Source: an uncultured Acidobacteriota bacterium (GTDB lineage Bacteria; Acidobacteriota; UBA6911). From it: a stretch of DNA of 64,000 nt. Location of the stretch: the NCBI GenBank assembly GCA_963843575.1, contig CAWJKZ010000021.1, positions 32,001 through 96,000 on the forward strand, in the 5' to 3' direction. Under the pieces are notes generated by a model. The model worked only from the letters and a program-made list of their open reading frames with translations. It ran no database searches and was not told the origin of the DNA. Made by a program: the position numbers and the translations under genes. Positions within the stretch are counted from its first letter, which is position 1; each line of letters starts with the position of its first letter. Below, one piece after another: positions 8,690 to 34,662 of this stretch.

Positions 8690-10379
8690 CCCGGATTATT
8701 CATCAGATCGTCGTAAATGGGGATTTGGCTGCCCGAGTGTGAGATGAAGACGGGGTATTCTCACTATGAGCAGTGGTTCATAGCTGGCAATTTGTGCTGG
8801 TGGCTCGATTCGGCGACAGCGGAACGCGCAACCAAGGGTTTCCGTGTGGTCCGTGCGTAGACTTCGTCCAGAGCGTGCGGATTGGCGGTTAACTTGCAGA
8901 ATATTCGGACACTTCATCCGGGCAAAGCGCCGGTCGCTTGTGCAACCCGGCGCCATGTTTTGATCCAGGCAAAGTCGGCGGGAAGATGCAGGACGATGCG
9001 CCGCACGGAGCTCTGAATCCACGCCCCCACTTTCAGCAGGCGTTCTCGGAGAGTGCTGACCTGTGCACTCTCGCAGCAAGTACCTGCCGCCAATCGGCGC
9101 ATCTCCTGCATCAGGACATAAGCAGCAGCCGTCATCAGAACACGCAGCTGGTTGGCCTGGAAGCTCGTGCAGCTGGTGCGGTCCATTTCGAGCCCTTGAT
9201 GAAGCTCCTTGATCCGATTCTCGGCATCGCCCCGTTCCCGGTAAATCTGGTAGACGTTGGCCGGGGTGTGCGGGAGGTTGGTGACAACAAACCGGGCGTT
9301 GTTTTTCGGGTCCCGTCCGGGATGGCGTACAACCTCGGCCTTGATGATGATACGCCGGCGACGGGACCACTTTCTGGCGGCATACCGGGTTTCACCGAAG
9401 ACATGCTCGGTCTGACCGGACTGACGCGACAAGATCCGGGCCCGCCCCATCAACCGCCGCGCCCGCTTCTCGAGCCTGACATTGGAACCCATGGCGACGA
9501 CATAGTCGACAGCTTCTTCGTCGAGGAAGTCGAGCAATCGAGGGTTGGCAAAACCTCCATCGAGCCGCACACGGATGCGGGTTTTCCCGAAGGCCATGCG
9601 CAGCAAACCAAGGATGCGCCGCAGAATGCCGACGGCTCCCAGGGCCGCCGGTGCATTGCCGGGGCGCAGGACGACGGTGAACAGGTACTTTTCAGGTTCG
9701 TCGTTGAACTGAAGCGTACCGACGACCGGCAGATAGCACCAGGTGTCGTAGTGCCCATTGAAGAAGCTCAGTTGCTGCTGCCCGTGAGTGGGATCGTCCG
9801 TAGGGTCGAGATCGATCGTGATCAGGCGAGCCTTGCCCCGGAGCCGGCGGGCATGATGATCGACGACGATGTCGGCGAGCTCGTTCCCCATTCGGACCAG
9901 ATCTCGATTCGACACGGAATTCTCAAAGCGCGAGAGCGTCGGCTGCGATCCGAGAGGATCGCCTTCGATGGGATCACGGTCAAGGATCATCTTGTGGACG
10001 GGGTCATGCCGCAAACGGCCGGCGTCGTTGCAGTCGGCGTAGCCGCAGGCAAGACCGTAGATGCGCTGGCGCAGCAGATCATGCACGGGATGCCAAACTC
10101 GCTCTGCCTCGCGAGTGTCTTCGATACACGAAGCCAGTCTCTCGGACAAACCGAGTCGTTGGTCGATAGCTTTCAAGAGAATGGCACCGCCTTCGGAACT
10201 GCTATTGTCCTGGTCGAAGGTCGCAAGAATGGGCTTGAGGAGCAGGTCGGGAAACAGAACACTCTGTGTGGTAAGATTAGCCATCGAAGAGCCTCTGCTT
10301 GCGTTGAGAATTTGTTTGGCGACAAGTTCTTATACGCATTCAGGGGCTCTTCGTTTCTATACCTCATGAATAATCCGGG
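8690..10379 (-). mobile_element. Complete IS1380-family insertion sequence (1690 bp)
   Basis: Perfect 14-bp terminal inverted repeats CCCGGATTATTCAT (8690-8703; 10366-10379) enclosing one transposase; lower GC than the flanks. Confidence 0.9.
8914..10284 (-). CDS. IS1380-family DDE transposase
   Basis: SSEGGAILL, LLRQRIYGLACGYADCND, SQPTLSRFEN, IDLDPTDDPTHGQQQ, LRPGNA, RLDGGF, YRERGDAENRIKE. Confidence 0.92.
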   Translation of the reverse strand: MANLTTQSVLFPDLLLKPILATFDQDNSSSEGGAILLKAIDQRLGLSERLASCIEDTREAERVWHPVHDLLRQRIYGLACGYADCNDAGRLRHDPVHKMILDRDPIEGDPLGSQPTLSRFENSVSNRDLVRMGNELADIVVDHHARRLRGKARLITIDLDPTDDPTHGQQQLSFFNGHYDTWCYLPVVGTLQFNDEPEKYLFTVVLRPGNAPAALGAVGILRRILGLLRMAFGKTRIRVRLDGGFANPRLLDFLDEEAVDYVVAMGSNVRLEKRARRLMGRARILSRQSGQTEHVFGETRYAARKWSRRRRIIIKAEVVRHPGRDPKNNARFVVTNLPHTPANVYQIYRERGDAENRIKELHQGLEMDRTSCTSFQANQLRVLMTAAAYVLMQEMRRLAAGTCCESAQVSTLRERLLKVGAWIQSSVRRIVLHLPADFAWIKTWRRVAQATGALPG

Positions 10380-22918: not shown

Positions 22919-23142
22919 TGCATCCGCCCTGCCGGGACTCGCCCGGCTGCCCTACCTGCCTGCTGAAAGTTTAGCCCCGTATCTTATAGGAAGCGAGTAT
23001 CTCGGAACAGCTGAGAATTCCCCCGCCCGCGCGGGAGAGTGAGCCGGTGCGTATTCCGCCATGCCCACCCGCAGCGGTTTGCGGTAATATAATGCGCGCG
23101 TGGCGCGGCTGGCCGCATCGAACTTTCAATGCCGGAGCGAGG

Positions 23143-24105
23143 ATGGAATTCAGAGTCCTGGGAAAGACGAACCTGAAAGTTTCCCGAGTTTCGATGGGCA
23201 CCATGACGTTTGGCGGATCCGTCACGGCGGATGAGTCGGTCCGAATCGTCGATGCGTGCCTCCACAGCGGCATCAACTTCTTCGACACCGCGAACGTCTA
23301 CAACCTCGGGCAGGCGGAGAGCGCACTGGGAAGAGCGCTGCGCGGCCGCCGCCACCAGGTGGTGCTGGCCACGAAGGTGGGGATCAGGATGGGGGACGAG
23401 CCCGACGACGCCGGACTCGGCCGGGCGGCGATTCGGAAGGCCATTCACGGAAGTCTGACCCGGCTGGGCACCGACTGCGTGGACCTCTACTATCTCCACC
23501 GGCCCGATCCCGGCACCCGCATCGACGAAACGCTGGCGGTGATGGACGAGCTGGTCAGGGAGGGGAAGGTGCGGTACCCGGCCATCTCGAACTATCCGGC
23601 GTGGCAGGCCCTGGAAATGCTGTGGAAGTGCGACAACCACGGCTACACGCCGCCCACCGTGTCACAGCCGATGTACAACGTGGTGGCCCGGCGCATCGAA
23701 GACGAATACCTCCCTTTCTGCCGGCAGTACGGGATGGGGGTCGTCGTGTACAACCCGCTCGCGGGCGGCTTGCTTACCGGAAAGCACCATTTCGAACAGG
23801 CCCCGGCTCAGGGCACGCGCTTCGACGGGAACCGCATGTACCAGGACCGCTACTGGCATCGAGAGTACTTCGAAGCGGTCGACAGGCTCGCCGCCATAGC
23901 CCAGGAGCGGGGGCTGCTCCTCCCGGACCTGGCCTTTCGGTGGCTGCTCTCCCAGCCTGCGGTGGACAGCGTGCTCCTGGGTGCCTCGAGCCTGGCTCAG
24001 CTCGAACAGAACCTGGCCGCATGCCGTCAGCCCCCGCTCGAAGCCGACGTCCTGCACGAGTGCGGCGCCGCATGGCCGGCGCTGCGAGGCGTCGCTCCGA
24101 GGTAA
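23143..24105 (+). CDS. Aldo/keto reductase
   Basis: GTMTFG, FFDTANVY, LATKV, DLYYLHRPD, GKVRY, YNPLAGGLLTGK. Confidence 0.92.
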   Translation: MEFRVLGKTNLKVSRVSMGTMTFGGSVTADESVRIVDACLHSGINFFDTANVYNLGQAESALGRALRGRRHQVVLATKVGIRMGDEPDDAGLGRAAIRKAIHGSLTRLGTDCVDLYYLHRPDPGTRIDETLAVMDELVREGKVRYPAISNYPAWQALEMLWKCDNHGYTPPTVSQPMYNVVARRIEDEYLPFCRQYGMGVVVYNPLAGGLLTGKHHFEQAPAQGTRFDGNRMYQDRYWHREYFEAVDRLAAIAQERGLLLPDLAFRWLLSQPAVDSVLLGASSLAQLEQNLAACRQPPLEADVLHECGAAWPALRGVAPR

Positions 24106-27112: not shown

Positions 27113-28950
<1,838 letters not shown>

Positions 28951-29264
28951 ACGTGCTCCTGCGATCGCCACGGGGCGGGCCCGCCCCTCACCGGGTCGAC
29001 TTGTTATATAGTGGGAATTACTTTGGGCACAATGGATATTGTGGGCGCTCGACCGCCCGCGCACATCCGGCCCGCCCGGCGCGGCCGGCCGCAACAAGTC
29101 TTCGACATATGGCGCGGCCGCCGCTATAATCGCCGCCATGCAAAGCCCCGAGCCGTCTGCCGGCATGGAGCAGGTCGCCGGGGCGGTTCACAACGCACGG
29201 GAATACTCCTCGACGTTGCTGTCGCAGTGACGACGGGAAGTCATCATCATTCAAAGAGGTCTAT

Positions 29265-30812
29265 ATGGCGGAGACGACGGGCCGCGTGCTCACAAACACT
29301 CAAAAGGCAATCCTGACGATACTCCGGATTGCGATCGGGTGGCACTTCCTTTACGAGGGGGTTGCCAAGCTGTTCACCCCCGGCTGGAGCGCCGCACCCT
29401 ACCTGCAGACATCCACCTGGATTTTCTCGGATTTCTTCCGCTGGATTGCCTCGACGCCCTGGGCCCTGAAGGCGACGGACCTGTTCAATATCTGGGGCCT
29501 GATGCTGATCGGGGTCGGGCTCATGCTCGGAGTGGCGACCCGGGTTGTGAGCCTGTTCGGAATCGCGCTCCTGATGATGTACTACCTGGCGCACCCGCCC
29601 CTTATCGGCGCGGATTGGCGCCTCCCCGCCGAAGGCCACTACTTCATCGTGAACAAGAACCTGGTCGAGCTCCTCGCCCTCTCCCTTTTTGCCGTGTTTC
29701 CGACGCAGGCTTTCGCCGGCCTGGACCGGCTCTTCGCGGGCCTGCTGCGGCGACCGAAGCCGGCCGGATCCCCGGAATCCGCCTCCGACGCGAGAGCCCT
29801 GTCGCGCCGTGAACTCGTCGGCAACCTTGCCGCCGTGCCGGTGCTGGGGGCCTTCGCGTACGGCGCCTACAAGAAGAGCGATTTCGAAAGAGTCCACGCC
29901 ATCACCGGGGCCACCATCACCCTCCAGGAGGCGGCTCTGAAAGACCTGAAGGGCGAGCTCCCGGCCGGGACGGTCGGCAACCTCCAGATGACTCGGCTCA
30001 TTCTCGGCTGCAACCTGATCGGCGGGTGGGCGCACTCGCGGGATCTCCTGTATGTCTCCTCGCTGTTCAAGGCCTACAACACCGAGCGCAAGGTGTTCGA
30101 GACGATCGAGCTGGCCGAGAAGGCCGGCATCACAATGATGCAGCTCGTGACCGGGCAGTACCCGATGTTTCTGAAGTACACCAAGCTCGTGTCGAACAAG
30201 ATGCAGACGATGTGCCAGGTGTATCCGACCGAAAAGGACATGACGACCGACATAGACAAGGCGATCGACAGCGGGGCGACGACGCTCTATGTGCAGGGCG
30301 CATACGCCGAGCGCTTCGTGAAGGCCGGCAGAATGGATCTGCTCGGCCGCAGCCTGGATTACATGAAGAAGCAGGGTTTTGTCTCCGGCATCGGGGCGCA
30401 TTCGATCGAGGTGCCGATTGCGGTCGAGAAGGCCGGCCTCAACCCGGACTACTACGTGAAGACGATGCACCACGACCGCTACTGGTCCGCGCACCCGCGC
30501 GACAACCGCCAGGAGTGGTCCATCGACGGCAACCGCTCCGAGGATCACAACGGTTTTCACGACAACATGTTCGACCTCTTCCCAGAGCGCACGATCGAGT
30601 TCATGGCCACCGTGCAGAAACCGTGGGTGGCCTTCAAGGTGCTCGCCGGCGGGGCGATCCCCCCCCGCGACGGCTTCCAGTATGCCTTCGACAACGGCGC
30701 CGACTTCATCTGCGTCGGCATGTTCGATTTTCAGATCGTGGAGGATGTCAACATCACGCTCGAGGCGCTGTCGAAGTGCACGGCAAGGCGCACGCGTCCG
30801 TGGCTCGCTTAG
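29265..30812 (+). CDS. DoxX-family membrane domain fused to an oxidoreductase-like (AKR/TIM-barrel-like) domain
   Basis: LRIAIGWHFLYEGVAK, YFIVNKNLVE (DoxX); LSRRELV plus a hydrophobic helix; TRLILGCNLIGG, GIGAHS, PWVAFKVLAGG, GADFICVGMF. Confidence 0.7.
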   Translation: MAETTGRVLTNTQKAILTILRIAIGWHFLYEGVAKLFTPGWSAAPYLQTSTWIFSDFFRWIASTPWALKATDLFNIWGLMLIGVGLMLGVATRVVSLFGIALLMMYYLAHPPLIGADWRLPAEGHYFIVNKNLVELLALSLFAVFPTQAFAGLDRLFAGLLRRPKPAGSPESASDARALSRRELVGNLAAVPVLGAFAYGAYKKSDFERVHAITGATITLQEAALKDLKGELPAGTVGNLQMTRLILGCNLIGGWAHSRDLLYVSSLFKAYNTERKVFETIELAEKAGITMMQLVTGQYPMFLKYTKLVSNKMQTMCQVYPTEKDMTTDIDKAIDSGATTLYVQGAYAERFVKAGRMDLLGRSLDYMKKQGFVSGIGAHSIEVPIAVEKAGLNPDYYVKTMHHDRYWSAHPRDNRQEWSIDGNRSEDHNGFHDNMFDLFPERTIEFMATVQKPWVAFKVLAGGAIPPRDGFQYAFDNGADFICVGMFDFQIVEDVNITLEALSKCTARRTRPWLA

Positions 30813-30855
30813 TACTGATGTTCACAGATACGCTGACATTTTTTTCAGGACGCGG

Positions 30856-31965
30856 ATGAGCGCGGATCCCCACGGATCGACCTGGCGACAGGACGCGGCC
30901 GATCCGGGTGATGCTTTGCAGCGCGCCGTGATGTTGCTGGCCACGGCCTGCGCGCTGGCGACGGCCGCCTGTGCCCTGGGGCCGTCTGCGCCGGTGAGCG
31001 AGTCGTTCACGTCGATGGGGACGATCGCCTCGGTCTCAGTCTCCGCGGAGTACCGGGAAGACCTCGCTTCTCTCACCCAGACCATCAAGCTCGCCTTCCG
31101 GCAGCTCGAGGACCGGTTCACCACCTACCAGCCCGACAGCGAAATCTCGCAGCTTGGACGCTCCGCCGGCGCCCCGGTTGCCGTGTCTGAAGATACGGCG
31201 CGTATCCTCGGGCTGTCGAAACACTTCGGTGACCTGACGGGGGGGGCCTTCGATGTAACGGTCGCCCCGTTGGTGAGGCTCTGGGGCTTCGGGGTGCGTC
31301 CCCCGGCCAACCCGCCCCAGGCCGAGGAAATCCGGGAGCAGCTGCGCCTGGTCGATTACCGACGGATTGCGTTGGGCCCGCGGACGGCCTCCCTGCCCGC
31401 CGGCATGAGCGTCGACCTAGGAGCCATCGGGAAAGGCTACGCCGTCGATCGGGGATTCGAATTGCTCGGCCGTACCCGCGTAAAGGCCGCGATGCTGGAT
31501 CTCGGAGGCAACATCCGGGTCCTCGGCAGGCCCGGGACCGCGGAAGAGTGGACGATCGGGGTGCGCGACCCCTTCGACCGGAGCAGGCTGGTCGGGAAAC
31601 TCCGTTTGCCGGATGGGATGGCAGTGGCTACCTCCGGTAACTACGAGCGCTATGTCGATCTCGGCGGCCGGCGCTACGCGCACATCATCGATCCCCGCAC
31701 CGGCACTCCGGTCGCGGGGATGGCGGGCGTCACCGTAATCGCACCCGACGCCACCACTACCGATGCGCTCTCCACTGGTTTGTTCGTGCTCGGGATCGAG
31801 GTCGGCACGAAGGCACTACGACGCGTCCCGGGGGCTGCGGCCCTGTTCATCCCCGACCGCGAACCCGTTGAGCTCTGGTTGACGCCCGGGATGGAACAGT
31901 TGTTCCAGCCGGTTCCCGACTGCGCGCCGGCGGTGCGGCACACGAGTACGAATGCCTCCAGGTAG
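30856..31965 (+). CDS. apbE: FAD:protein FMN transferase ApbE (start uncertain)
   Basis: SMGT, GAFDVTV, DLGAIGKGY, DLGGNI, ATSGNYERY, HIIDPRTG, DALST. Confidence 0.92.
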   Translation: MSADPHGSTWRQDAADPGDALQRAVMLLATACALATAACALGPSAPVSESFTSMGTIASVSVSAEYREDLASLTQTIKLAFRQLEDRFTTYQPDSEISQLGRSAGAPVAVSEDTARILGLSKHFGDLTGGAFDVTVAPLVRLWGFGVRPPANPPQAEEIREQLRLVDYRRIALGPRTASLPAGMSVDLGAIGKGYAVDRGFELLGRTRVKAAMLDLGGNIRVLGRPGTAEEWTIGVRDPFDRSRLVGKLRLPDGMAVATSGNYERYVDLGGRRYAHIIDPRTGTPVAGMAGVTVIAPDATTTDALSTGLFVLGIEVGTKALRRVPGAAALFIPDREPVELWLTPGMEQLFQPVPDCAPAVRHTSTNASR

Positions 31966-32082: not shown

Positions 32083-32757
32083 TCAGGAGGTCGTGACGAC
32101 AAGCTTCCTGGGACGCGGCCGCCGTTTGACCCCGCTCCTCGGGACGTATCCGAACTGCGCCAAGGCCGCGGCCAGCTTCTTGCGCCCCCGGTGAAGCCGG
32201 TTGACGACGTTCTGGTACGGCACCGGATGCAGCCGGGCGGCAATCTCCCCAGTTGGCATCCCCGCCAGGAGCAACTGCACCGCTTCGCGCTCACCGCAGG
32301 TTAGACCGCCCAGGATGCCGGTGATCAGCGCTCGAAGTTCCGCGTGGTGCAGCCTCGACTCGGGCGTCTGTATTCCCGTCCCGAGGTTGGCGGCGCTCCG
32401 CTCGTGGTGCGAGAAATCGTGCAGCGGGGCGGCGCGCCGCGCCTTTCGGTAGTAGTTGCCCACCTTGTTCCGAAGGATCCCCATGCTCCAGACCAGGAGC
32501 CCCTTCTCGAGCTCGACACCCAGTCCTTTGGATGTCATGGTAAGAAAGGTCTCCTGGACGAGGTCCTCCGCATCTTCCGCGTTCGCCACCCTGAGCTCGC
32601 TCAGCTTCTGCAGCACGACGCGGATGCGGCGCAGTTCGTCGTCCGGCCAATCCTGGAGTTTGGCACTCCTGCGGTAGCCCGCGGCAGCCGTTTCCCCGAT
32701 GTGCAGCGCTTGTGATCCGACGACAATGTAGGAGTAATACACGTTCAGCCCCTCCAA
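32083..32757 (-). CDS. ECF-like sigma-70 factor (start uncertain)
   Basis: DAEDLVQETFL, WSMGILRNKVGNYYRK (region 2); REAVQL...EIAA...VNRLHRGRKKL (region 4). Confidence 0.8.
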   Translation of the reverse strand: MEGLNVYYSYIVVGSQALHIGETAAAGYRRSAKLQDWPDDELRRIRVVLQKLSELRVANAEDAEDLVQETFLTMTSKGLGVELEKGLLVWSMGILRNKVGNYYRKARRAAPLHDFSHHERSAANLGTGIQTPESRLHHAELRALITGILGGLTCGEREAVQLLLAGMPTGEIAARLHPVPYQNVVNRLHRGRKKLAAALAQFGYVPRSGVKRRPRPRKLVVTTS

Positions 32758-33032: not shown

Positions 33033-34662
33033 TTAGGCGTGCGTTTCATCCAACAGGCGGATGAGGGTCTGGTAGCGCGGGTTGCTGCGCACGGGGTCGA
33101 GGTTGCTGTCGTGCTCGAGCCAGCCCTTCTCGGTCAGGCCGCTGCGCACAGCCTTTTCGAGTGTCTCGATGGCCTCGCCGGTGGATCCCGCGAGCGCCTG
33201 GATGCAGGCCACGTTGTAGAGGACCATGGGCTCGTCGGGCTCCAGCGCGAGAGCCTGCCTGGCCCACTCGAGCCCCTTGTCGCATTCGCCGAGCGCGACA
33301 AGGCCGTTGGCCCCCATGTAGACGCGCGCGGACGTCGTCGGGATTCAGCCTGAGCCGGGCCTCGGCGAGCTCGACGCCGCGGCGGCGGGTGGCTTCGGCC
33401 TCCGCCGTGCGCCCAAGGTCGGCCAGGATCTGCGCCGACAGCAGGGGCGCCTGGTGGTCCTGGGGGCGGACCTCGCTCGCCTTGCGGTACAGGTCGATCG
33501 CCTTCTCCGGTTTCCCTTGTGCAAAGCTGAACCGGGCGTAGAAGTAGTAGGCTTCGAACAGGAGCGGGTCGAGCCGGATGGCGGTCTCGAAGAAACGCTC
33601 CGGCTCCTCGCGCAGCCCGTGCAGCGACAGGGCGAGCGCGCGCGACGCGTTGGCTTCCGCCGAGTCCGGGTCGCACTCGACGGCGCGCGCGCTGGCCTGC
33701 GCCGCCCGCTCGCGGTGCTCGTCGTGGCTCCCCGCGTACATGTAGAGGAACGAGCAGCAGTCCGCGATGCCGGCGTAGGCGCGGGCATACCCGGGGTCGA
33801 GCTCGATCGCCTGGGAGAACATGTGCAGCGCGAACTCCATCCCCCGGCTCGTGTATCTGTAGTAATACTGCCGGCCGCGCAGGTAGTAGTCGTAGGCCTC
33901 GACGTGGCTCGTCGGGATCCGCGCAATCGCGTCGCTCTCCTTCGGGCTGAGCGTCACCTTGAGCACGGCCGCGATGCTGAGCGAGATCTCGTTCTGGATC
34001 GCGAAAATGTCCTTGAGCTCGCGCGTGTAACGCTCCGACCAGAGGTGGCAGCCGTCCTCGACGCTGATCAGCTCGGCCGTGATGCGCAGCTGGCCGCCCG
34101 CCTTGCGCACGCTGCCGTCCAGGACCGCCGAGACCCCCAGCTTGCGGCCGACGGCGCGCACGTCCTCGGACTTCCCCTTGAAGGCGAACGAGGAGGTGCG
34201 GGCGGCCACCCGCAGGCCGCGGACGTGCGCCAGGTCGTTGATGATCTCCTCGGCGATGCCGTCGCAGAAGTACTCCTGGTCCTTCTCCACGCTCATGTCC
34301 GCGAAGGCCAGCACCGCCACGGACGGCCTGGCGCGGGGGCCGGGGTCGCGCTCCGCGACGGGCGCAATCAGCCGGTAGCCCTTGCGCGAGATCGTCTGGA
34401 TGAAACGCGGGTTCCGGGCGTCGTCGCCGAACGCCTTCCGGAGCTCCGCGATGGAATACGTCAGGATCCCGTCGCTGACGAACGTGTCGGGCCACACCGC
34501 GCGCAGGATCGTCTCCTTCGAGAGGACCTCGCCGGGAGAATCGGCCAGGCACTCAAGCACCTGGATGACCTTGGGCTCGACCGGGACCGCCACCCCCGCC
34601 CTGGAGATCCGGTTCAGGTCCGGCTCCACGCGCCACTCTCCGACCTGGAATGGTCTGCTCAT
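33033..34662 (-). CDS. Winged-helix (Trans_reg_C)/TolB-like/TPR regulator, frameshift near 33325
   Basis: VEPKVIQVL...VWPDTFVS...IQTISRKGYRL; SVAVLAFADMS...EYFCDG; TPRs; C-terminal YNVAC...WLEHDSNLDPVR in the second frame. Confidence 0.8.

Follow-up and report, generated by a model that had tools for sequence, protein, structure and literature searches.

A DoxX-barrel fusion protein with an internal twin-arginine motif and a candidate flavinylation site, encoded next to apbE in an uncultured Acidobacteriota bacterium

A DoxX-barrel fusion encoded upstream of apbE

We analysed a stretch of 64,000 nucleotides (hereafter, the window) from an uncultured Acidobacteriota bacterium of the lineage UBA6911 (assembly GCA_963843575.1, contig CAWJKZ010000021.1, positions 32,001 to 96,000 of the forward strand). 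The analysis centred on an open reading frame (ORF) encoding a membrane protein and on the adjoining apbE gene, which encodes a flavin adenine dinucleotide:protein flavin mononucleotide (FMN) transferase (Table 1). From its N-terminus the protein comprises a DoxX domain, a basic loop carrying a twin arginine (RR), a fifth hydrophobic helix, a linker containing the heptad HAITGAT and a (beta/alpha)8 barrel. An earlier note, made from the letters of this DNA, had described a DoxX-oxidoreductase fusion with an internal twin-arginine motif and a flavinylation-like site, followed by apbE, and this observation was borne out as a whole in the ORF, its domains, the positions of its motifs and the neighbouring gene. 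The region 29793-29960 translates as RALSRRELV, a hydrophobic stretch, KK and HAITGAT, in that order. The LSRRELV segment and the further hydrophobic helix are thus present as the note had read them, and the heptad lies exactly where it was placed, with Thr217 as its last residue.

Table 1. Features of the fusion gene, its product and the adjoining apbE gene. Positions are those of the window.
Feature	Residues	Positions	Strand	Basis and remarks
Promoter-like TCGACA-17-TATAAT		29102-29130	+	Consensus match alone, 11/12 positions
Shine-Dalgarno-like AAAGAGG		29253-29259	+	Read off the sequence; 5 nt 5' of the ATG at 29265
ORF of the fusion protein	515 aa	29265..30812	+	ATG start
DoxX membrane domain	1-150	29265..29714	+	Pfam, AlphaFold2 helices, hydropathy; N-terminus predicted inside
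Basic loop ending in RR, predicted cytoplasmic	151-183	29715..29813	+	Homologue conservation
Twin arginine R181-R182 within LSRRELV	181-182	29805-29810	+	Translation of 29793-29960
Fifth hydrophobic helix, predicted Tat-dependent signal-anchor	184-202	29814..29870	+	Hydropathy
Heptad HAITGAT, predicted FMN site Thr217	211-217	29895-29915	+	Translation, conservation
(beta/alpha)8 barrel	225-515 + stop	29937..30812	+	AlphaFold2, Foldseek; aldo-keto-reductase-like fold, no Pfam family
apbE (FAD:protein FMN transferase), hydrophobic N-terminus		30856..31965	+	Pfam ApbE, E 3.9e-81

The Pfam DoxX profile (PF07681) matched residues 17-105 above its curated cut-off (E 2.8e-7, 31.5 bits, cut-off 23.6) and was the sole Pfam domain recognised in the protein; NCBIfam returned no family for it. 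For the whole chain, an AlphaFold2 (AF2) model based on an alignment of 38 homologues had a predicted local distance difference test (pLDDT) score of 85.6 and a predicted template modelling (pTM) score of 0.61. Its first four membrane helices span residues 11-37, 55-88, 92-109 and 131-144, in agreement with a hydropathy scan and with the roughly four transmembrane (TM) helices counted in the earlier note. The profile match and the four helices together assign this part of the protein to DoxX, in which R21, W26, H27, E31 and K35 are invariant. Over the 38 fused homologues, the mean number of lysines and arginines was 1.84 in the N-terminus, 1.18 in loop 1, 1.0 in loop 2, 0.5 in loop 3 and 7.66 in loop 4. 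This pattern fits a predicted topology in which a four-helix DoxX domain has its N-terminus inside and is followed by a strongly basic loop 4.

Homologues occur in fused and stand-alone forms

A word-index search returned 6602 matches at E <= 0.001 among 8000 candidates scored. Among the 120 matches listed, 119 were at least 470 aa long; the named matches carried the label 'DoxX family protein' and the named organisms were Acidobacteria/Acidobacteriota. Searching the ESM Atlas with one homologue (P0083) gave only 'DoxX family' clusters. An exhaustive search of 50%-identity representatives gave 2493 matches at E <= 0.001, 244 of them at E <= 1e-30, and also found barrel-only proteins of ~330-360 aa, many of which open with textbook twin-arginine signals. 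A scan of one genome per species yielded 675 relatives, from which 79 loci were kept and analysed together with the window. These sources contain 97 barrel ORFs: 31 with a DoxX fusion, 57 that stand alone and are complete, four whose start is unclear and five cut by a contig end or by runs of N.

A conserved twin arginine precedes the fifth helix

The twin arginine was invariant in 18 of 18 close homologues and in all 38 fused homologues (30-91% identity), and RR followed by hydrophobic residues was found in 31 of 31 fused ORFs from the genome loci and the window. Since both RR and the heptad occupy the same alignment columns across this range of identity, they lie beyond chance. The hydropathy of the protein peaks at 1.42 over residues 184-202, and in the AF2 model a short helix (181-187) covers RR and a long fifth helix spans 190-212. 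In the 38 homologues the best 15-residue hydropathy of helix 5 averaged 1.85, compared with 2.48, 2.02 and 2.29 for TM2-4 and 1.68 for TM1, and a mean of 3.13 lysines and arginines lay within 10 residues after helix 5. In Tooke et al. 2017 (PMC5449189), positive charges trailing a last helix of weak hydrophobicity are described as the signal for hand-over from Sec to the twin-arginine translocation (Tat) system in Rieske, Sco3746, polyferredoxin and YkuE-type proteins. The conserved RR before the final helix agrees with such Sec- and Tat-dependent proteins. The low hydrophobicity of that helix agrees in part, because TM1 scores below helix 5; our values are on the Kyte-Doolittle scale, whereas Tooke et al. 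used insertion free energies.

Tat-type signals, in which RR is followed by hydrophobic residues, open 55 of the 57 complete stand-alone barrel ORFs. Some stand-alone homologues (such as P0128 and P0142) start at RR itself, so that the RR found inside the fusion sits in their N-terminal signal. Because the stand-alone homologues begin with Tat-type signals, we place the barrel outside the cytoplasm. These signals, the conserved RR, the charges and the hydropathy together lead us to read RR and helix 5 as a putative internal Tat signal-anchor. With the N-in charge pattern, they suggest that the C-terminal domain is not cytoplasmic and that the barrel is very probably periplasmic. By the same evidence, the heptad would lie outside the cytoplasm, where ApbE substrates carry their motif.

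The linker carries a conserved heptad resembling the ApbE motif

ApbE attaches FMN within the motif D-x-x-[S/T]-G-A-[S/T], for which seven residues suffice, and such flavin tags work best at terminal or flexible positions (2025 review, PMC12052999). HAITGAT satisfies six of the seven positions; its first residue is His instead of Asp, as the earlier note had remarked. In 18 of 18 close homologues A212, G215, A216 and T217 were invariant, and the last residue of the heptad was Thr or Ser in 37 of 38 fused homologues. RR with a heptad after it is present in 136 of the 142 homologues that reach 470 aa or more; the heptad begins with His in 92, Asn in 20, Asp in 20, Gln in two and Glu in two; its last four residues are TGAT in 107, TGAS in 13 and SGAT in nine (129 together). 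The earlier note had proposed conservation of RR and of [ST]GA[ST] as a check on its reading, and both are conserved at these frequencies. The six exceptions include a protein in which Tyr comes first and TGAT is intact, two with a degraded heptad (P0024 and P0163), one with a heptad-like DATTSAT and no RR where it would be expected (P0263), one whose architecture differs (P0232) and a fusion to another barrel (P0235).

Distant members, from Bacteroidota, Planctomycetota and KSB1, mostly show the canonical D-x-x-[ST]-G-A-[TS] at the aligned position; His is thus a feature of the clade. Replacement of Asp by Ala in the ApbE motif was reported to have only minor effects (PMC12052999), and for this reason His211 would be no bar to flavinylation. 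The whole-chain AF2 model has pLDDT < 50 at residues 211-219, which include the heptad. Membership of the FMN_bind domain family (PF04205) failed: the only match covered profile positions 49-66, 18 residues over the motif part of a domain of roughly 77 positions, and was below threshold (E 0.19, 12.8 bits, cut-off 22). The heptad begins nine residues after helix 5, and therefore there is no space for an FMN_bind domain. The suggestion in the earlier note that the FMN site lies in a short linker rather than in such a domain agrees with the motif-only match and with the disorder of the linker in the model.

The heptad goes with fusion to DoxX

Under the strict pattern, the heptad is present in 27 of 31 fused ORFs and, among 57 stand-alone ORFs, in that of L003 alone. 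Near-matches stand at the same place in the remaining four fused ORFs: DAFSGST (twice), DAVASAT and DAISRAT. Kinship alone might yield such a pattern, and we therefore built a tree of 95 barrel domains. Fused forms fell into two separate supported clades, one of 29 rows (Acidobacteriota, including the window, and Bacteroidota) and one of nine rows (Planctomycetota, Bacteroidota and KSB1). Within the first clade, several Bacteroidales members have neither DoxX nor the heptad. Contrasts were drawn on 92 rows of the tree, after three rows cut by contig ends had been dropped. Of six independent contrasts between fused and stand-alone forms, an average of 5.3 showed the heptad changing in the same direction and none showed the reverse. 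This is suggestive, though not conclusive, of an association between the heptad and DoxX fusion that is independent of kinship.

Many stand-alone barrels have in common a conserved stretch, S-L-E-E-[KQ]-x-L-L-A, which directly follows their Tat-type hydrophobic segment and stands at the place of the heptad (for example P0144, P0146 and P0156, and loci L012, L013, L030 and L043, among others). Tandem sets of two or three stand-alone barrel paralogues occur in genomes of the Planctomycetota type and in a few others (L030, L033, L038, L042, L043, L044, L052, L056, L058, L064 and L068).

The same cassette precedes an FMN_dh domain

P0235 resembles the window protein over the N-terminal 200 residues only (49% identity), and its C-terminal part is a true FMN_dh domain (PF01070, E 6.4e-110). 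A search with P0235 found 23 proteins (564-611 aa) in which DoxX, RR and helix likewise precede FMN_dh. RR and the hydrophobic helix are present in all 23, and the heptad is canonical in six (D[AG][VL]SGAT), a variant in 13 ([DN]xxxAGA[TS]) and degraded in four. The members of this family (P0235, P0210 and P0271-P0296) are not encoded in the window. Most of the stand-alone FMN_dh relatives displayed (~380-395 aa; 60 shorter proteins in all) start with twin-arginine-type signals, and no heptad was seen by eye in the N-termini of those displayed.

By hhalign (4%), the two barrels that carry the cassette show no detectable profile similarity. That the cassette stands before both, and that the unfused relatives of both look Tat-exported, is the strongest argument for its linking a periplasmic redox domain to the membrane. 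DoxX, RR, helix and heptad may thus form a portable quinone-coupling cassette, placed before at least two dissimilar TIM-barrel families that are otherwise exported alone by Tat; we advance this tentatively, as a possibility that falls somewhat short of even. Because FMN_dh enzymes already hold a flavin of their own, a relay role for the tethered FMN is favoured.

apbE adjoins the fusion gene in Acidobacteriota

The stop codon of the fusion gene (30810-30812) is followed after 43 nt by the candidate ATG of apbE, which is preceded by AGGA; the earlier note had put this gap at about 44 bp. No terminator-like site was found in the gap. The apbE ORF is open from 30682, so the start at 30856 is a candidate, and the hydrophobic segment follows later Met codons. 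The window ApbE scored 163.5 bits against NCBIfam PRK10461, below its equivalog cut-off of 498, and aligned with four apbE genes that adjoin homologues.

Linkage was assessed by jackhmmer with the window ApbE over all 3856 ORFs of the loci. apbE was found in five sources, namely the window, L005, L006 and L007 (all Acidobacteriota) and L029 (Bacteroidales), and Pfam confirmed three of these. It lies immediately downstream on the same strand in all four Acidobacteriota sources, and is convergent in L029. Outside Acidobacteriota, adjacency was seen in one of 25 heptad-bearing sources. Overall, apbE is near five of 29 heptad-bearing sources, compared with none of 51 sources without the heptad. 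The linkage suggested by the earlier note is therefore upheld within Acidobacteriota, where an ApbE is encoded beside the fusion in each source, and is not a general property of the family. Many bacteria keep apbE apart from the genes of its substrates, as at Nqr/Rnf loci, which makes the absence of adjacency weak evidence.

Among the 39 other window ORFs scanned, there was no match to the FMN_bind, Nqr/Rnf, NosR or DUF2271 families, which leaves the fused protein as the sole candidate ApbE substrate nearby. Taken together, the motif, its conservation and the predicted location suggest that Thr217 is likely to be flavinylated by ApbE. One Acidobacteriota locus (L007:5374-9760) encodes two tandem fused paralogues, both with HAVTGAT, directly followed by apbE.

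The C-terminal domain is modelled as an AKR-like barrel and has no Pfam family

Modelled alone, residues 225-515 gave a (beta/alpha)8 barrel with a pLDDT of 91.9 and a pTM of 0.92. The top Foldseek matches in the PDB were to PA4992, a putative aldo-keto reductase (AKR; 4exa/4exb; E 1.6e-9, TMq 0.59-0.61, 14-16% identity). Further matches were to other AKRs (TMq 0.5-0.58), and then to catalytic domains of inosine monophosphate dehydrogenase (IMPDH) and FMN-dependent hydroxy-acid oxidases (0.48-0.54). Pfam searches at E up to 10 gave no match for the barrel, and when 26 family members were scanned singly at the same limit no family recurred except a weak TAT_signal in four. Searches of PDB sequences with phmmer and with the family profile found just a ~27-residue stretch resembling IMPDH/guanosine monophosphate (GMP) reductase (E 0.72 and 0.007). 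At strands 7-8, GGAI...NGADF.CVGM gave weak local matches to barrels of this type (E 0.007-0.016).

Against AKR-Fer4 proteins encoded at neighbouring loci, hhalign gave a probability of 94% before trimming. After trimming of the Tat-type N-termini shared by both sides, the value dropped to 34% (E 4e-4 for 143 columns in strands 4-8); reversed-sequence controls gave 0.1%. The untrimmed match was for this reason rejected as evidence of membership. In the untrimmed alignment, the Asp-Tyr segment of AKRs falls in a gap and the AKR His lies opposite Gln/Gly. Membership of the AKR family (PF00248) was rejected, as there was no Pfam match and the catalytic tetrad was not recovered. Within the barrel family, a distinct set of His, Asp, Lys and Tyr residues is invariant or nearly so. 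The description 'AKR/TIM-barrel-like' in the earlier note thus stands for the fold and falls for the family. Membership of the FMN-dependent alpha-hydroxy-acid dehydrogenases (PF01070) likewise failed, with no Pfam match and the hhalign value of 4% given above. The window also encodes a canonical AKR (23047-24102, + strand; PF00248, E 2.6e-75); BLASTP of this protein against the barrel gave nothing significant, the best match being a 16-residue stretch at the hairpin and strand 1 (E 0.52).

A model for a quinone-coupled periplasmic oxidoreductase

Little is known of the DoxX family, among whose members are DoxD, which forms the small subunit in archaeal thiosulfate:quinone oxidoreductase, and BtdS, which is the small membrane subunit in hydroxyhydroquinone dehydrogenase; both are linked to quinone chemistry (PMC10084136). 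By analogy with these members, coupling of the window protein to quinone through DoxX is reasonably probable. We propose, with moderate confidence in the model as a whole, that the protein is a single-chain, quinone-coupled periplasmic oxidoreductase that is inserted by Sec and Tat and carries an ApbE-attached FMN on a flexible tether. Sec would insert the four DoxX helices with the N-terminus inside, and the long basic loop 4 would stay in the cytoplasm. The barrel would fold there, probably around a non-covalent nucleotide-type cofactor. RR and the moderately hydrophobic helix 5 would then be passed to Tat, which would carry the folded barrel across, leaving helix 5 in the membrane as a signal-anchor. 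Outside the cytoplasm, ApbE would flavinylate Thr217 on the flexible tether between helix 5 and the barrel, and the tethered FMN would relay electrons between the active site of the barrel and a quinone/quinol site in DoxX. By analogy with the DoxX-FMN_dh sister fusions, the likeliest direction would be oxidation of the substrate and reduction of quinone. The earlier note had named loss of conservation of RR or of the heptad, or a cytoplasmic C-terminal domain, as grounds against a reading of this kind; none of these was found, and its interpretation is supported.

Several observations weigh against this proposal. The AF2 model gives the tether no defined position, and the arrangement of the domains relative to one another scores a pTM of only 0.61. 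His211 stands where the ApbE review calls Asp 'strictly conserved' (PMC12052999), and the acceptor Thr/Ser or the Gly is lost in P0024, P0163, L074 and the second copy in L072. apbE is not adjacent in 24 of the 29 motif-bearing sources, and the four Acidobacteriota cases, being mutually related, amount to about one event. The sign test on the contrasts is borderline (median p 0.0625, range 0.031-0.125). TM1 is less hydrophobic than helix 5, and no Tat component was found among the window ORFs scanned. Quinone binding by DoxX-type domains is drawn from family precedent. The barrel has no Pfam family, and its profile links are weak, dropping with trimming for AKR and standing at 4% for FMN_dh.

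The main rival to the relay model is that FMN on Thr217 folds back to serve as the barrel's own catalytic flavin, with stand-alone relatives binding the same flavin non-covalently. Flavinylation can evolve at an existing flavin site, even on an unstructured extension (Huang et al. 2024). The Tat-type signals of the heptad-less stand-alone forms would fit a non-covalent cofactor, and the weak IMPDH/GMP-reductase-type matches at strands 7-8 and the FMN-dependent hydroxy-acid oxidases among the Foldseek matches (TMq 0.49-0.54) point the same way. However, the best folds and the sole profile signal are those of NAD(P)-dependent AKRs, not of FMN barrels, and the profile comparison with FMN_dh stands at 4%. 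In the DoxX-FMN_dh fusions the barrel has its own FMN site, and a tethered flavin there would be a second one. An invariant RR would moreover be needless if the only cofactor were added outside the cell, and AF2 leaves the tether undocked from the barrel. We consider this rival unlikely.

The two other explanations are less likely. In one, the heptad is a conserved structural or linker element without a flavin, ApbE serves substrates encoded elsewhere, and the adjacency is synteny within one clade. The presence of apbE at only five of 29 motif-bearing sources, four of them related Acidobacteriota, would suit this explanation, as would the His in place of a 'strictly conserved' Asp (PMC12052999), the loss of the acceptor residue in some fused homologues and the sub-threshold FMN_bind match (E 0.19). 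It is at odds with the full canonical motif in the same column of distant homologues, with a heptad that tracks DoxX fusion (27/31 vs 1/57) and recurs in the DoxX-FMN_dh fusions, and with the 39 other window ORFs, which match no known ApbE substrate family. The minor effect of the Asp-to-Ala change and the sufficiency of a flexible seven-residue tag (PMC12052999) also argue against it, and we regard it as improbable. In the other, the barrel is cytoplasmic, RR belongs to a positive-inside loop, helix 5 is re-entrant or peripheral, and the heptad lies beyond the reach of an extracytoplasmic ApbE. Three positive charges after helix 5 would indeed favour an inside end for a Sec-inserted helix, and the window ORFs scanned held no Tat genes. 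Yet charges after a weakly hydrophobic final helix are also the described Sec-to-Tat signature (PMC5449189), and an RR conserved in 38 of 38 homologues exceeds what a generic basic loop needs. Tat-type signals on 55 of 57 stand-alone barrels, homologues such as P0128 and P0142 that begin at RR and the hydrophobic N-terminus of the window ApbE make a cytoplasmic barrel very improbable.

Relation to known systems

The architecture combines known kinds of element: ApbE flavinylation, dual insertion by Sec and Tat, and DoxX-anchored dehydrogenases. An ApbE motif on an unstructured extension is known from FMN_red and also from Flavodoxin_4 (Huang, Meheust, Barquera & Light 2024, preprint). Like those FMN_red proteins that are associated with ApbE, the window protein has an [S/T]GA[S/T]-type heptad outside FMN_bind on a flexible segment beside a redox domain, heptad-less relatives, and apbE nearby. 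In contrast to FMN_red, its heptad lies between a TM helix and an AKR-like TIM barrel of an undescribed family, its flavinylation is predicted, and it is polytopic, with DoxX and an internal RR. FMN_red is found in Firmicutes, whereas the present family is mainly from Acidobacteriota and Bacteroidota.

The membrane modules associated with flavinylation are NapH-like, MsrQ-like, PepSY-like, DsbD and Nqr/Rnf-like (Meheust et al. 2021, PMC8238504). As in FMN_bind (PF04205) modules of the NqrC/RnfG/PplA type, an extracytoplasmic covalent FMN is proposed here as a relay between membrane and outside, and ApbE is encoded in the cluster. Unlike them, the window protein lacks the FMN_bind fold, has DoxX as its membrane partner and holds all parts in one polypeptide. 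'DoxX' is absent from the main text of PMC8238504, and its small supplements name neither DoxX nor PF07681, although its large gene-cluster table may.

The polytopic Sec- and Tat-dependent proteins (actinobacterial Rieske, the heme-MoCo protein Sco3746, polyferredoxin and YkuE-type) share with the window protein Sec-type helices first, RR right before the last helix, charges trailing that helix and a predicted C-terminal extracytoplasmic globular domain; its five-helix layout matches that of Sco3746 and polyferredoxin, and the weak hydrophobicity of their last helix is matched in part. It differs from them in its DoxX membrane domain, AKR-like cargo and added heptad, and its Tat route is predicted. 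Tooke et al. 2017 (PMC5449189) do not mention 'DoxX'. A four-helix membrane part of the DoxX/DoxD type in a quinone-linked oxidoreductase is shared with DoxDA thiosulfate:quinone oxidoreductase and BtdLS (PMC10084136). There, catalysis falls to a separate subunit, and RR helix, heptad and ApbE are all absent, whereas the window protein is fully fused and its catalytic domain is predicted to be Tat-exported. The barrel shares with the AKR superfamily (PF00248; PA4992 closest) the (beta/alpha)8 fold with an N-terminal beta-hairpin. It differs in lacking a Pfam match and the AKR Asp-Tyr/His, in having its own conserved residues and in its predicted export. No description of a DoxX-RR-heptad-barrel architecture was found in the literature searched, which excluded most subscription journals, and DoxX was absent from the best-matching literature on DoxX with ApbE or flavinylation.

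ApbE flavinylation and Sec/Tat co-insertion are each known from a handful of protein classes, and the window protein would enlarge both. Its family is very large and is labelled in databases just as 'DoxX family protein'. If the cassette reading is correct, it would define a new class of ApbE substrate, a bare tether that lacks a flavin-binding fold, together with a sixth kind of membrane electron-transfer module associated with flavinylation and a further family of Sec- and Tat-inserted proteins. As a swinging arm, the covalent FMN would link a periplasmic active site with the quinone pool, in a design that wires chemistry outside the cell to the respiratory chain, and for DoxX there would be a function that can be tested, that of the quinone end in a periplasmic dehydrogenase. 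This would be a natural use of a bare seven-residue tag on a tether, as engineered flavin tags suggest is possible. With thousands of members in soil and gut phyla, the family would point to a redox metabolism in the periplasm of Acidobacteriota, Bacteroidota and Planctomycetota that is as yet unexplored. In about 4% of genomes, apbE genes remained 'orphan', implying unrecognised substrates (Meheust et al. 2021, PMC8238504), and some of these genes would be accounted for.

Gene neighbourhoods of the homologues and of the window

Neighbourhood scans covered 68 ORFs surrounding 12 of the 28 fused loci listed (L001-L037) and 130 ORFs surrounding 29 stand-alone loci, from which seven ORFs of more than ~900 aa had been dropped, including the only neighbour in L003. 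Across these 12 fused and 29 stand-alone loci, no partner gene was conserved between clades, and there was no separate DoxX gene near the stand-alone forms. Neighbours present in subsets were DUF6599 and AKR-Fer4 (a Bacteroidales subclade), GFO_IDH_MocA (five of the 29 stand-alone loci), sulfatases, ADP-ribosylglycohydrolase and HAD. In the Bacteroidales subclade (L001, L002, L008, L009, L011, L014, L024 and L037), a convergent AKR(+4Fe-4S) gene lies downstream on the opposite strand, separated from the homologue by a DUF6599 gene in seven of these eight loci; no DUF6599 gene was seen in L024. Twin-arginine-type N-termini were found on eight AKR-type neighbours, seven from subclade loci and one from L015. 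This arrangement may be mere synteny. GFO/IDH/MocA oxidoreductases, sulfatases or a 3-keto-disaccharide hydrolase stand beside some stand-alone barrels (L016, L042, L044, L067, L078 and L069), a weak hint of periplasmic carbohydrate redox chemistry.

In the window, a divergent short-chain dehydrogenase gene (28224-29166, - strand) precedes the fusion gene, and the ~300-nt spacer between them holds the promoter-like site of Table 1. Two promoter-like sites were found in the scanned region, compared with 0.3 expected from shuffles. A DDE transposase gene (8917-10284, - strand; DDE_Tnp_1_4, E 3.5e-124) lies ~19 kb away from the fusion gene. Just downstream of apbE, on the opposite strand, is a gene for a sigma factor of the extracytoplasmic function type (32083-32757, - strand). 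Beside it is a large ORF (33046-34662, - strand) that by eye appears regulator-like, with repeats resembling tetratricopeptide repeats.

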